Below the pieces are notes generated by a model, which ran no database searches, was not told where the DNA came from, and saw only the letters and a program-made list of their open reading frames with translations. Shown here in pieces: positions 23,543 to 27,093 of a stretch of DNA of 29,853 bases. The stretch's first letter is position 1. Every line of letters begins with the position of its first letter. Origin of the DNA: a bacterium (GTDB taxonomy: Bacteria > Chloroflexota > Dehalococcoidia > E44-bin15); contig JAIWEW010000001.1 in the NCBI GenBank assembly GCA_048632005.1, positions 1 through 29,853 of the forward strand. The letters run 5' to 3'. Position numbers and translations under genes: made by a program.

Positions 23543-24031
23543 TTATTTATCCCTCACTAGTACTATAGCTCCGATTATCGCTGCTAGCATAAGCGCGGCG
23601 GCAATCTCAAAGGCGAGGACAAATCCGTCCTCACTAAATATGGCATGTGCAATCGCCGATGTTGTGGATTCGGTGGGAACCTCAGCGACGACATTCCAAT
23701 CGGTGTTTACCAGGGCAAAGATCATGGTCGCTAGAAATAGGAGGCCTATAAATAAGGCGGGGAGCCGCAGTCGACCCGAGGGGCTGCCCTGCCGGCTATC
23801 TCTGGTGAGCATAATGGCAAAGATGATAAACACCCCGATCGCACCTACATAGATGAGCACCTGCGCCCCTGCGAGGAAATCGGCGCTCAGCGTGGCATAG
23901 ATACCTGCCACAGTGAAAAAGCAGAGCACCAGGAAAAGAGCGGCGCGGAATAGATCGCGCGTCAACACCACAGCCAGCGCCGAAGCCACGCTCACCACCG
24001 CCAAAATCCAGAAAGCAATATCCATACCCAT
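23543..24031 (-). CDS. nuoJ: Complex I subunit J
   Basis: AQVLIYVGAI and FEIAAALMLAAIIGAI; start coupled to the upstream stop (TAATG). Confidence 0.95.
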   Translation of the reverse strand: MGMDIAFWILAVVSVASALAVVLTRDLFRAALFLVLCFFTVAGIYATLSADFLAGAQVLIYVGAIGVFIIFAIMLTRDSRQGSPSGRLRLPALFIGLLFLATMIFALVNTDWNVVAEVPTESTTSAIAHAIFSEDGFVLAFEIAAALMLAAIIGAIVLVRDK

Positions 24032-27000
24032 TACGCCACTTTTTCCTTCTCTACCTCATCCTCTACTACCTCTACTTTATCCTCTACTACCCGGTTGCGG
24101 TCTAGAAGAAGAGCCTGTTTGGGCAAGGTTGGCTCAATCTCGGGACGAGCATATGCGCTAGGCTGCATTTCGGGGGATGGTCTAAGCCCCTCTTTATCCA
24201 GTTCCATGTCTTCCCTGCGGTAACAGGATGCCTCGTACATTCTCGATAGGTATAACCGGTGGGCAGGACATGCCTCAATGCATAGGCCACAGAATATACA
24301 TTCTCCAAGGTCAATATCAAATCTCTCTACACCCGTTGTTCCCTCCGGTGTCTCTTGGGGCAATATCTTAATAACCCCATAAGGGCACGCATTTGCACAC
24401 TGCTGGCACCAGGCGCAGAAACCACAGTTGAAGCACCTCTTGGCTTCCGCGATACAGTCATCTTCGGAGAAGCTGATAGCACACTCCTCGAATCCCTTGA
24501 CCCTCTCCTCAACGCTTACGTGTGACAGCTTGGCTCTTTCCGCTTTATCATAGTCACTGATGTCCAGGTCCTCGAATGCTACCTGTTCCATCGGTAGCGC
24601 CTGCTTTGATATATCTATACTCTCGCCGCGAAGATAGCTATCAATAGCGATCGCCGCCTTCGCTCCATCCCCTATGGCCTCCACCACCGTCGCCGGCCCG
24701 CTTACTGCATCCCCGCAGGCAAAGATGCCGGGTTTGTTGGTAGCGTTGCTAATGGAATCGACATCGAAGGTATTCCATTTTGTAATCTGTATATCCTCCC
24801 CCCCGCTCAAGAAATCGAGATCGGGTCTCTGACCAATTGCGGGGATAATCATGTCGACATCGAGGACAAATTCCGATCCCTTGACCTCTACCGGTCGTCT
24901 CCTGCCACTGGCATCTGGCTCCCCCAGCTCCATTTTGATACACTCCATCCCCGCCACTCTGCCACCATCGTCAACAACCCTAACCGGGGCCGCCAGGTAA
25001 TGAATGGTGATATTTTCCGCTATTGCATCCTCTATTTCCTCTTCATCGGCCGGCATCTCCTGCCTCGACCTGCGATAAACGATAAACACTTCCTTAGCAC
25101 CCATACGAAGGGCCGTCCTCGCAGCGTCTATGGCCACATTGCCACCGCCGACTATAGCTACTTTATTCCCTATCTTGACCTCTTTACCCAGGGCTACATC
25201 GCGAAGGAAATACACACCATGATATACGCCTTCAAGTTCCTCTCCGGGGATACCCAGCTTCATGCTGGTGTGGGCTCCAACTGCGAGGAGTATTGCCTTA
25301 TATCCCTGCTGCTGAAGCGATTCAAGAGTAAGGCCATTCTTACCCACGGGGCTGTTCAGCTTTATCTCAACGCCGCAAGCTTTGATATTATCTATTTCCT
25401 TTTGCAGAACTGCCTTTGACAGGCGATATTCCGGAATGCCCACCCATAGCATGCCACCGGGAACGGGAAGGGCTTCAAATACCGTCACTTCATAGCCCAG
25501 CCTGGCCAGGTCGCGGGCAGCGGTTAGACCACCGGGGCCAGAACCGACTACAGCCACTTTCTCACCCCAGGTTCTGGGGTAAGGGGTCACATCCCCCCTG
25601 CCTACGCTAAGCTCATAATCGGTCACGAACCGCTTTATGTCACGAATAGCAATCGGCTGATCGAAGCAGCCTCGATTGCACGCCTTCTCACAGGGGTGCG
25701 TGCAAACCCGGCCACAGGTGATAGGGAAGGGATTGGTTTCCCTTATCAGCTCAACGGCCTCCTGAAACTTACCCTGAGAGGCATAGGCCACATATCCCTG
25801 CACATCCACACTGGCAGGACATGCCGCAATGCATGGAGCCCGTTTCCGCTCGTCCCGCACAAAGCTTTGTCCCCGGGCACGTTTGGACACGCTCAGCCGC
25901 TGCTCAGGATATTGCACCGTGATGGGATGACGGAAAAGATGCCTGAAGGTCAGCGCCATACCCTTGGCCACTCCCCGACCAAAATGAGTAAAGCTTACCC
26001 TCTCGCCGTACACCCTGAACATGCTTGACCAGAGGACGATTAGTATAGCAGCGATGGGGATATTGACGAACATAAGCCACCACGGGAACTCGGGCCATAA
26101 GATCACCTCGATACCGGTGACAAAGATATTAATAATCGCCAATGGGAAGAGGAATTTCCAGGCAAACTCCATCAGCTGGTCCACCCTTAGCCGTGGCAGG
26201 GTGCTACGTATCCATACAAGAGCGGCGAATACAATGAGCACCTTGAGCATGAACCACATCGCATCCGGTAACAGTGGTCCCTTTCCACCGCCAAGGAAAA
26301 GCGCTGTCAGAATAGCGGAGGCAGCGAAGGCATGGGCGTATTCCCCCAACATGAACAGTCCATACTTCATTCCAGAGTATTCAGTATGGAAACCTGCCAC
26401 GATCTCGGAATCTGCCTCTAGAAGGTCGAATGGGCTGCGGTTGATCTCCGCCGCCAGTGCCAGGAAGAATATTAAGAATCCCAGGGGCTGAAGTAAAAGG
26501 AAGGGCACACTTTGTGCCTCTACTATGCTAACCATTGACATAGAGCCGGCTATCATAAGCACACCTATGATGGAAAGCACCAGCGGGACCTCATAGCTTA
26601 CCATCTGGGCCATAACGCGCATGGCACCGAGAAGGGAGTACTTATTACTTGAGCTCCACCCCGCCATAAAAATACCGATTACCCCCAGTGAGGATACCGC
26701 AATTATGTAAAGTATTCCGATATTAAGATCGGCGATAAAGCCACCGTGGCCCCATGGCATGACAGCAAAGATCAGCAGCACCGGAACGAACGTTATAACG
26801 GGGGCAAGCCAGTGAATCTTGCGGTCCGCGAGTATGGGGATGATATCCTCTTTAAGTAGAATCTTAATAGCATCGGCTACCGGCTGAAGGACACCCTGCG
26901 GCCCTGCCCGATTGGGTCCCTGACGAATCTGGAACCTCCCTAGTAATCTTCGCTCAATATAGATGAAGCTCATCACCACTAAAAGGATGCATGTAGAGAG

Positions 27001-27093
27001 GATGGTGAAGGCGATCAATACAGGTATGAGATACGCTGCCCAATCAGGTAAATAGTTCAGCAGCCAATTCTGGAATTGCTCGAGAACTCCCAC
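24031..27093 (-). CDS. nuoH-nuoI: NuoH-NuoI fusion with a GltD/NfnB-like FAD/Fe-S NAD(P)H oxidoreductase inserted inside NuoI (~1020 aa)
   Basis: One uninterrupted ORF containing NuoH motifs, the NuoI N-terminus, a GltD-like body and both NuoI CxxCxxCxxxCP motifs. Likely start is GTG 27093, overlapping the nuoD stop with GAGGTG 8 nt upstream, rather than ATG 27117. Confidence 0.9.
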   Translation of the reverse strand: MGVLEQFQNWLLNYLPDWAAYLIPVLIAFTILSTCILLVVMSFIYIERRLLGRFQIRQGPNRAGPQGVLQPVADAIKILLKEDIIPILADRKIHWLAPVITFVPVLLIFAVMPWGHGGFIADLNIGILYIIAVSSLGVIGIFMAGWSSSNKYSLLGAMRVMAQMVSYEVPLVLSIIGVLMIAGSMSMVSIVEAQSVPFLLLQPLGFLIFFLALAAEINRSPFDLLEADSEIVAGFHTEYSGMKYGLFMLGEYAHAFAASAILTALFLGGGKGPLLPDAMWFMLKVLIVFAALVWIRSTLPRLRVDQLMEFAWKFLFPLAIINIFVTGIEVILWPEFPWWLMFVNIPIAAILIVLWSSMFRVYGERVSFTHFGRGVAKGMALTFRHLFRHPITVQYPEQRLSVSKRARGQSFVRDERKRAPCIAACPASVDVQGYVAYASQGKFQEAVELIRETNPFPITCGRVCTHPCEKACNRGCFDQPIAIRDIKRFVTDYELSVGRGDVTPYPRTWGEKVAVVGSGPGGLTAARDLARLGYEVTVFEALPVPGGMLWVGIPEYRLSKAVLQKEIDNIKACGVEIKLNSPVGKNGLTLESLQQQGYKAILLAVGAHTSMKLGIPGEELEGVYHGVYFLRDVALGKEVKIGNKVAIVGGGNVAIDAARTALRMGAKEVFIVYRRSRQEMPADEEEIEDAIAENITIHYLAAPVRVVDDGGRVAGMECIKMELGEPDASGRRRPVEVKGSEFVLDVDMIIPAIGQRPDLDFLSGGEDIQITKWNTFDVDSISNATNKPGIFACGDAVSGPATVVEAIGDGAKAAIAIDSYLRGESIDISKQALPMEQVAFEDLDISDYDKAERAKLSHVSVEERVKGFEECAISFSEDDCIAEAKRCFNCGFCAWCQQCANACPYGVIKILPQETPEGTTGVERFDIDLGECIFCGLCIEACPAHRLYLSRMYEASCYRREDMELDKEGLRPSPEMQPSAYARPEIEPTLPKQALLLDRNRVVEDKVEVVEDEVEKEKVA
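24034..24417 (-). other. nuoI: NuoI C-terminal 2x[4Fe-4S] segment of the fusion
   Basis: CAWCQQCANACP...RFDIDLGECIFCGLCIEACP...YEASCYRR. Confidence 0.92.
24049..24090. repeat. Imperfect 21-bp tandem duplication in the charged C-terminal tail of the fusion
   Basis: CTCTACCTCATCCTCTACTAC / CTCTACTTTATCCTCTACTAC (19/21 identical), encoding VVEDKVE-VVEDEVE on the minus strand. Confidence 0.8.
24418..25842 (-). other. Inserted GltD/NfnB/SudA-like flavoprotein domain (~475 aa, circularly permuted)
   Basis: APCIAACP; CGRVCTHPCEKAC; GSGPGG; GIPEYRL; GGGNVAID; VYRRS; GDAVSGP; C-terminal EAKRCFNC. Confidence 0.92.
25843..25998 (-). other. nuoI: NuoI N-terminal segment of the fusion
   Basis: GVAKGMALTFRHLFRHPITVQYPEQR...RARG...DERK matches the NuoI start up to its first Cys motif. 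Confidence 0.88.
25999..27093 (-). other. nuoH: NuoH domain of the fusion
   Basis: ERRLLGRFQIRQGPNRAG; QPVADAIKILLKED; SYEVPL; EINRSPFDLLEADSEIVAGFHTEYSG; PRLRVDQL. Confidence 0.95.

Follow-up and report, generated by a model that had tools for sequence, protein, structure and literature searches.

A complex I with a predicted NADPH-binding flavoprotein cassette built into NuoI in an uncultured Dehalococcoidia bacterium

An uncultured Dehalococcoidia bacterium (E44-bin15 lineage; GCA_048632005.1) encodes a respiratory complex I that lacks the usual NADH-oxidising subunits in its operon and instead carries a flavoprotein cassette, predicted to bind NADPH, spliced into its NuoI subunit next to the first iron-sulfur cluster of the electron wire. 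The window we analysed is the whole 29,853-nucleotide stretch of contig JAIWEW010000001.1 (positions 1 to 29,853). A single ORF of 1020-1028 aa (24031-27093/27117, minus strand) holds NuoH, an extra transmembrane helix, the NuoI N-terminus, a 475-aa GltD-like cassette (24418-25842) and the rest of NuoI. The initial annotation had read this arrangement as an alternative, covalently attached N-module, and our sequence-level tests support that reading. It is most likely a built-in NADPH:acceptor input (or NADP+ output) module. We found no published description of this design.

The ORF 24031..27117 (-) is open for 1028 codons, and its likely start is the GTG at 27093, which overlaps the nuoD stop. 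Pfam profiles identify NADHdh (NuoH; residues 38-334, E 1e-116), Fer4_20 (residues 425-503, E 4.5e-21), Pyr_redox_2 (residues 520-818, E 6e-36) and Fer4_7 (residues 901-952) in the numbering of the predicted protein, P0001. The NuoH domain (26116..27093, -) is followed by an extra hydrophobic helix (26002..26091, -) that links the C-terminus of NuoH to cytoplasmic NuoI; it is seen as a Kyte-Doolittle hydropathy window at residues 335-364 and as a helix at residues 339-358 of the AlphaFold model, and the same helix is present in the plain NuoH-NuoI fusions. The NuoI N-terminal segment (25843..26001, -), which runs up to ...RARGQSFVRDERK, matches the N-terminus of NdhI/NDUFS8 (E 1e-6) and aligns with plain NuoI and with the NuoI of a second architecture, T2, described below. 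The rest of NuoI (24031..24417, -) comprises motif 1 (CAWCQQCANACP), motif 2 (CIFCGLCIEACP) and the C-terminal tail, and matches E. coli NuoI and other NuoI/TYKY chains (E 2e-15) as well as the NCBIfam NuoI model. The insert boundaries given in the initial annotation, 25842 and 24418, are exact: counting from the GTG start, the cassette runs from R418 to F892, and the two NuoI pieces add up to 53 + 128 = 181 aa. A plain NuoH-NuoI fusion from the same family (G194, 567 aa) aligns across the site with no cassette, and it is one of two family members that carry such an empty site.

The surrounding operon has the order nuoA, B, C, D, HI, J, K, L, M, (NUDIX ORF), N and contains no nuoE/F/G. All eleven core subunits of the Q and P modules gave Pfam hits: nuoA (29251..29619, -; Oxidored_q4, E 1e-35), with a promoter-like site matching 11 of 12 positions just upstream at 29712-29683; nuoB (28676..29371, -; Oxidored_q6), whose true start is probably downstream of 29371 because the ORF overlaps nuoA; nuoC (28186..28671, -; Complex1_30kDa, E 1e-40); nuoD (27093..28196, -; Complex1_49kDa, E 7e-97); nuoJ (23543..24031, -; Oxidored_q3); nuoK (23234..23539, -; Oxidored_q2); nuoL (21307..23229, -; Proton_antipo_N and Proton_antipo_M); nuoM (19806..21290, -; Proton_antipo_M); and nuoN (17870..19294, -; Proton_antipo_M). 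The Q-module is intact. NuoB retains the four ligands of cluster N2 (the CC pair, GAC and GCPP), and NuoD is of the complex I type rather than the hydrogenase type, since GPAHPSTHG and RLDY keep the equivalents of Nqo4 His38 and Tyr87 and there are no NiFe cysteine motifs.

To ask whether the fusion could be an assembly chimera or a decaying, non-functional gene, we searched for it in other assemblies, as the source is a fragmented MAG of 230 contigs. About 20 clusters of 69-96% identical full-length proteins come from the ENA, JGI, NCBI and Logan assemblies, and the fusion occurs in contigs of six GTDB species with the same operon, and in 14 of 23 other genomes of the family. All 15 Fe-S ligand cysteines (including all 8 of NuoI) and Lys487 are invariant in 21 sequences, while 5 of the 8 cysteines not predicted to be ligands vary. 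The GxGxxG motifs, YRRSRQEMPA and the Arg equivalent to StnC R239 are also invariant. Even without read data, these independent assemblies effectively refute an artefact, and the different studies and isolates involved exclude that all of them derive from one co-assembly.

Notably, the cassette is circularly permuted relative to GltD/NfnB, as in StnC and Bfu-type NfnA, which refines the initial annotation of a GltD/NfnB-like flavoprotein. In order, it holds the ligands of two [4Fe-4S] clusters, the FAD domain, the NADPH domain and the relocated "N-terminal" segment that ends in RCFNC. NfnB residues 7-42 (ending RCLQC) align to the end of the cassette and NfnB residues 45-462 to its start, so the chain enters and leaves the cassette at the distal cluster. 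As a result, two ligands of the distal [4Fe-4S] cluster lie two residues before the first Cys of NuoI motif 1. The exit string is C-x2-C-x2-C-x2-C-x2-C-x3-CP, in which the first two cysteines belong to the cassette and the last four to NuoI motif 1. PDB hits are 9bov_A (E 1e-136), 8oh5_C, 9n5u_A and 4ylf_B (E 7e-107). An AlphaFold2 model has pLDDT >= 90 over most of the cassette; its best fold matches are 9bov_A and 8oh5_C, and it matches 4ylf_B at rmsd 2.0 A. The NuoI parts of that model are below 50 and the full-length model has pLDDT 38, so the wiring of the cassette onto NuoI is read from the sequence alone. The dinucleotide is predicted to be NADPH only from motif conservation: VYRRSRQEMPA aligns with IVYRRTEREMPA of NADPH-dependent T. 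maritima NfnB.

The K in RDIKRFV aligns with StnC K170 and with the Glu of NfnB that ligates the proximal cluster. This observation bears on the possibility that the cassette is a bifurcating or confurcating site that couples NADPH with ferredoxin or a second partner rather than passing both electrons down the NuoI wire. The cassette is homologous to NfnB, whose FAD bifurcates (PMC8097209), and 11-subunit complexes are often assumed to take ferredoxin (PMC11238625). However, the Lys ligand is that of non-bifurcating StnC, no NfnA/PyrK-like partner gene is present in the window, and the cluster branch that carries the low-potential electron in Nfn is the one joined to NuoI here. We consider a bifurcating role very unlikely.

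We next asked whether a separately encoded NuoE/F-type module could dock on the complex and be the real donor, leaving the cassette an accessory or regulatory role. The genome (1.35 Mb, 84% complete) has a single NuoH but four NuoF-like matches, plus NuoE-like genes and FdhA subunits with NuoG-like N-terminal domains, on other contigs, and split nuoEFG loci have been proposed for other deep-sea Chloroflexi (PMC5736913). The two contexts that could be read are formate-dehydrogenase-type clusters, in which these genes are organised with molybdopterin formate-dehydrogenase subunits and not with nuo genes; two further NuoF-like fragments sit on short contigs. The cassette is attached at the face of NuoI that carries N6a, which in canonical complex I is likely where NuoG docks, and the strict conservation of all its cofactor ligands argues for a catalytic role. 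An external donor of this kind is thus improbable, although the genome is incomplete.

We therefore favour, with reasonable confidence, an 11-subunit-type complex I in which the missing NuoEFG input module is replaced by an NADPH-binding FAD/2x[4Fe-4S] cassette, inserted into NuoI immediately before its first cluster-binding motif, with NuoI itself fused to NuoH through one extra transmembrane helix. In the proposed path, NADPH passes a hydride to FAD, and single electrons go to the proximal [4Fe-4S] cluster (three Cys plus Lys), the distal [4Fe-4S] cluster (C421, C472, C887, C890), N6a (C893, C896, C899, C942), N6b and N2 in NuoB, and reach the quinone-type site in NuoD/NuoH, which drives ion pumping by NuoL/M/N. 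Cofactor occupancy, cluster distances, nucleotide specificity, direction of flow, the acceptor and pumping are inferred.

The chain could also run backwards, with proton or sodium motive force pushing electrons from a reduced membrane carrier up to NADP+, so that the complex would act as a membrane-bound NADPH generator for an anaerobe. Complex I is reversible, GltD-type cassettes work in both directions (Stn was assayed both ways), and the genome carries many soluble low-potential enzymes, such as FDH complexes and TfrA-like proteins, that could reduce carriers. An NAD kinase gene follows nuoN, which counts in favour of the forward reading as well, but this linkage is seen only among close relatives and nadK may have its own promoter. 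Nothing in the sequence fixes a direction, and no quinol-producing or quinone-biosynthesis genes were detected, which weighs against this reverse reading as the physiological one; we regard it as unlikely. No acceptor pathway is evident for the forward direction either. MqnA/D were found in none of 31 family genomes, the MenA model passed its cut-off in only one of them, and the only UbiA-family gene in this genome is a sub-threshold heme-O-synthase-like ORF. No NrfD, NarI/DsrM-type or RdhA genes were found in this 84%-complete genome.

The design is not unique to this fusion. In the T2 architecture the cassette lies between NuoI motifs 1 and 2, and in T3, which is unfused, it lies before motif 1. 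Both sit in the nuoI slot of EFG-less operons in other Dehalococcoidia, in an Actinomycetota MAG and in an unclassified MAG. The cassettes of T1 (the fusion described here) and T2 are not sister groups (AU test p 8e-47), indicating that at least two, and possibly more, independent NuoI::GltD architectures exist. A broader reading, which we offer only tentatively, is that a portable, circularly permuted NADPH-FAD-2x[4Fe-4S] cassette has been captured repeatedly by NuoI, at least twice and possibly four or five times across these lineages, giving a previously unrecognised class of ion-pumping NADPH-linked complex I. As at least this family shows no recognisable quinone biosynthesis, such an enzyme may use an unknown membrane acceptor or may work mainly as a motive-force-driven NADPH generator.

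What donates electrons to the widespread 11-subunit complex I-like enzymes of anaerobes has been an open question since at least Moparthi and Hagerhall 2011 (reviewed in PMC3144371 and PMC11238625), and it was still stated as open in 2024 (PMC11238625). Here the predicted donor module is written into the polypeptide, so the question becomes directly testable for one enzyme class. If correct, the finding would add an NADPH-specific member to the complex I family and show modular evolution in action, since the cassette used by the soluble Stn and NfnABC transhydrogenases is plugged into a membrane pump.

The closest known systems are StnC of the Sporomusa ovata StnABC transhydrogenase (PDB 8oh5) and NfnA of the Bfu-type NfnABC complexes (PDB 9bov, 9n5u). 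They share the permuted GltD cassette, bounded by ..PPCxxxCP at the start and ..EAxRCLxC at the end, its insertion inside a host iron-sulfur protein of the complex I family, Lys at the proximal-cluster ligand position and Arg at the R239 position. In StnC the cassette delivers NADPH electrons linearly, without bifurcation, into the host's cluster chain (PMC10482914). The host there is a soluble NuoG/FdhF-like subunit, whereas here it is NuoI of a membrane-bound, 11-subunit complex I; no StnA/B (NuoE/F-like) bifurcating module is encoded in the operon, and the cassette exit runs straight into a CxxCxxCxxxCP motif. Compared with canonical bacterial complex I (NuoA-N; T. thermophilus Nqo1-14), the Q and P modules are encoded in the usual order with the N2 and N6a/N6b ligands and the NuoD His/Tyr pair, but the operon lacks NuoE, F and G (with FMN and clusters N1a, N1b, N3, N4, N5), NuoH and NuoI form one polypeptide, and the predicted donor is NADPH acting through FAD. 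Fpo with FpoF (F420H2), cyanobacterial and plastid NDH-1 (ferredoxin via NdhS/V/O) and the 11-subunit enzymes of anaerobes whose donor is unknown also combine an 11-subunit core with a non-NuoEFG donor, which in those systems is a separate subunit or a soluble carrier; here the predicted NADPH/FAD donor module is covalently inserted into NuoI. Finally, Mbx-like operons of Thermotoga and some proteobacteria genetically associate a GltD-type NAD(P)H flavoprotein with a complex-I-like membrane module (Degli Esposti 2015, PMC4758237). According to that paper a separate gltD-like gene takes the place of NuoI in an Mbx/hydrogenase-type complex, whereas in the operon described here NuoI is retained and interrupted, and NuoD is of the quinone type.

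To define the architecture of the locus, we first annotated the minus strand of the window. It carries nuoA (29251-29619), nuoB, nuoC, nuoD (27093-28196), one long ORF (24031-27117), nuoJ, nuoK, nuoL, nuoM, a small NUDIX ORF, and nuoN (17870-19294). The long ORF is open for 1028 codons, and its likely start is the GTG at 27093, which overlaps the nuoD stop. Pfam searches identified NADHdh/NuoH (residues 38-334, E 1e-116), Fer4_20, Pyr_redox_2 and a C-terminal 4Fe-4S dicluster domain in this ORF. The stretch just before the flavoprotein part matches the N-terminus of NdhI/NDUFS8, the stretch after it matches NuoI/TYKY chains of many solved complex I structures (E 2e-15), and the middle 475 residues match GltD-type proteins. 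The boundaries of the insert proposed in the initial annotation, 25842 and 24418, are exact, and the two NuoI pieces add up to 181 residues. A hydrophobic helix (residues 335-364) lies between NuoH and NuoI, as would be needed to bring the chain back to the cytoplasmic side. The 140-aa NUDIX hydrolase ORF (19391-19813, minus strand) lies between nuoM and nuoN, where relatives have the same ~500-nt gap. An NAD kinase gene (nadK; 16970-17785, minus strand) follows 84 nt downstream of nuoN on the same strand, and a second NUDIX gene (15970-16509, minus strand) lies downstream of nadK. The substrates of the NUDIX proteins are unknown, although nucleotide or NAD(P)H housekeeping is conceivable.

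To determine whether the fusion could be an assembly artefact, we relied on independent assemblies. Full-length proteins with the same architecture, 69-96% identical, form about 20 clusters from ENA, JGI, NCBI and Logan assemblies. Six contigs of GTDB species representatives, labelled Dehalococcoidia or Dehalococcoidales MAGs and originating from different studies, carry the same fusion in the same operon. A search for related loci found only close relatives of this type, and its other hits were soluble GltD multidomain proteins. In a sample of 400 genomes of the class, in which only three candidates per genome were scored, matches covering both NuoI ends and the cassette were found in 14 of 23 other genomes of the window's own family, and in no other family. 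Notably, two members of the family (genomes G194 and G209) have the NuoH-NuoI fusion without any cassette. Their sequence runs ...RGNLLVWDVER-CNGCRACARMCP..., so the cassette in the window sits exactly in front of the first Cys of NuoI motif 1. Such plain NuoH-NuoI fusions (518-567 aa), which include the protein P0139, occur in the same family and elsewhere, and the H-I fusion therefore exists independently of the cassette. A chimeric join is excluded by these independent assemblies.

The best sequence and fold matches of the cassette are NfnA of the Caldicellulosiruptor Nfn-ABC complex (9bov_A), StnC of Sporomusa ovata (8oh5_C) and Thermococcus sibiricus NfnA (9n5u_A), followed by classical NfnB (4ylf_B; rmsd 2.0 A over 418 columns), GltD and DPD. 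The alignments show a circular permutation: NfnB residues 45-462 align to the start of the cassette (APCIAACP...), whereas NfnB residues 7-42, which end in ..EAQRCLQC, align to its end (...AEAKRCFNC). StnC and Bfu-type NfnA have the same order. If the ligands follow the DPD scheme, the distal cluster would be bound by C421, C472, C887 and C890, and the proximal cluster by C425, C464, C468 and K487. The polypeptide therefore both enters and leaves the cassette at the distal cluster. In the exit string, RC-FN-C-GF-C-AW-C-QQ-C-ANA-CP, two distal-cluster ligands are followed, two residues later, by the four cysteines of NuoI motif 1. By analogy with the T. thermophilus structure, the first three of those cysteines would bind N6a, the cluster that receives electrons from NuoG in canonical complex I. 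Since ligands three residues apart bridge clusters about 12 A apart in 2x[4Fe-4S] ferredoxins, a short hop is likely here, although this rests on sequence and not on a measured distance. A full-length AlphaFold2 model built on 21 close homologues was unusable (pLDDT 38). A second model, built on 79 diverse sequences, folds the cassette with pLDDT >= 90 over most of its length and the relocated terminal segment at about 75-93, but leaves the NuoI parts below 50.

Across 21 sequences of the window's type (designated T1; 68-97% identity), all 15 Fe-S cysteines are invariant, and so are K487, both dinucleotide-binding glycine motifs, YRRSRQEMPA and the Arg equivalent to StnC R239. In contrast, five of the eight cysteines not predicted to be ligands vary. 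K487 aligns with StnC K170 and with the Glu ligand of NfnB. In StnC this Lys ligates the proximal cluster, and there the FAD is non-bifurcating and feeds both NADPH electrons linearly through clusters C7 and C6 into the NuoG-like chain (PMC10482914). The YRR motif is shared with NADPH-dependent NfnB.

The rest of the downstream complex I machinery is intact. NuoB keeps the four N2 ligands, NuoD has GPAHPSTHG and RLDY, the equivalents of Nqo4 His38 and Tyr87, and no NiFe motifs, and NuoL, M and N are present. The genome (1.35 Mb, 84% complete) has a single NuoH. Of its four NuoF-like matches, the two whose context could be read belong to soluble formate-dehydrogenase-type clusters, the other two are fragments on short contigs, and none is next to nuo genes. 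One cluster (contig C55; locus L087, 1185-7508) encodes FdhA, a NuoE-like protein and a NuoF::GltD fusion of 1068 aa. The other (contig C26; locus L088, 2934-8035) encodes a NuoE-like protein, a HydB-like NuoF and an FdhA interrupted by an in-frame stop, possibly selenocysteine. The same GltD cassette is thus reused in several enzymes of this organism.

To place this fusion in a wider context, we compared the NuoI::GltD proteins found in other lineages and could distinguish three architectures. In T1, found in the window and its own family, NuoI is fused to NuoH and the cassette lies immediately before NuoI motif 1. T2 proteins are about 627-646 aa and are not fused to NuoH, apart from one truncated NuoH-fused example; here NuoI motif 1 lies before the cassette, which sits between the two motifs. 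T2 occupies the nuoI slot of nuoABCDH-I-JKLMN operons without nuoEFG in other Dehalococcoidia, namely two metagenome contigs and three genomes from three other families. T3 proteins (632-664 aa) are unfused, with the cassette before motif 1 and a C-x2-C-x4-C spacing, and occur in the same operon slot in an Actinomycetota MAG (GCA_030679975.1) and an unclassified bacterial MAG (GCA_043798715.1). A representative-library search with the NuoI C-terminus revealed T2 and T3 representatives and a plain HI fusion, but it did not enumerate T1, which is represented there only by a fragment. NuoD identity to the window falls from 78% (plain HI fusions) to 60-74% (T2) and 53% (T3).

In a tree of 89 cassettes, T1 is nested among about 900-aa HdrA-like::GltD proteins, whereas T2 groups with NuoF::GltD fusions. 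We considered a single origin for the T1 and T2 cassettes and rejected it, since forcing them together costs 345 log-likelihood units (AU p 8e-47), with the caveat that the groups were defined after the tree had been seen. With T3 added, T3 splits into two or three lineages on long branches, and the T2 and T3 cassettes are of different ancestry from the one in the window. NuoI has therefore captured this cassette at least twice. The nearest soluble relative of the T1 cassette, the HdrA-like protein P0026, has the same RCxNCGxCxWCxxC exit string. The T1 "motif 1" could therefore either be native to NuoI or have come in with the cassette, and the cassette plus a trailing cluster motif may move as one unit.

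The initial annotation interpreted the insert as an alternative, covalently attached N-module, and this interpretation is supported at the sequence level. The best-supported reading is a built-in NADPH dehydrogenase module that replaces NuoEFG, which would give an ion-pumping NADPH:acceptor oxidoreductase or, run backwards, a motive-force-driven NADP+ reductase; cofactor occupancy, the specificity for NADPH, the direction of electron flow and ion pumping are inferred. The position of nadK, which is retained in close relatives (loci L006, L007 and L010), fits an NADP(H) link only loosely; it may be only inherited synteny, and the gene may have its own promoter. A promoter-like site sits in the gap (17873-17845). 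Our search for an acceptor pathway argues against a tidy respiratory picture. MqnA/D were found in none of 31 family genomes, and the MenA model passed its cut-off in only one of them. The only UbiA-family gene in this genome (contig C105, 1288-2172) is a sub-threshold heme-O-synthase-like ORF next to aroB, and no NrfD, NarI/DsrM-type or RdhA genes were found in this 84%-complete genome. The acceptor is therefore unknown, as it is for Dehalococcoides complex I. The plus strand of the window (1-11906) carries a cluster of central-carbon genes encoding a carboxyltransferase, an OadA/PycB-like biotin subunit, aconitase-family large and small subunits, an isocitrate/isopropylmalate dehydrogenase, malate dehydrogenase, class I fumarase alpha and beta subunits, a TfrA-like fumarate-reductase flavoprotein (8059-9699) flanked by two Fe-S proteins, and an acyl-CoA dehydrogenase.

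We found no published description of a GltD insertion in NuoI or of a NuoH-NuoI fusion, although a prior description cannot be excluded since most subscription journals were not covered. A review of GltD-like modules lists GltS, DPD, Nfn and AegA only (PMC8097209), and a 2024 paper still treats the donor of 11-subunit complexes as unknown (PMC11238625). The closest concepts are the alternative input modules of complex I relatives (FpoF; ferredoxin-binding Ndh subunits) and the gltD-type gene of Mbx-like operons (PMC4758237). The closest solved analogue is StnC / Bfu-NfnA, which has the same cassette inserted into a complex-I-family Fe-S protein, but in a soluble transhydrogenase.
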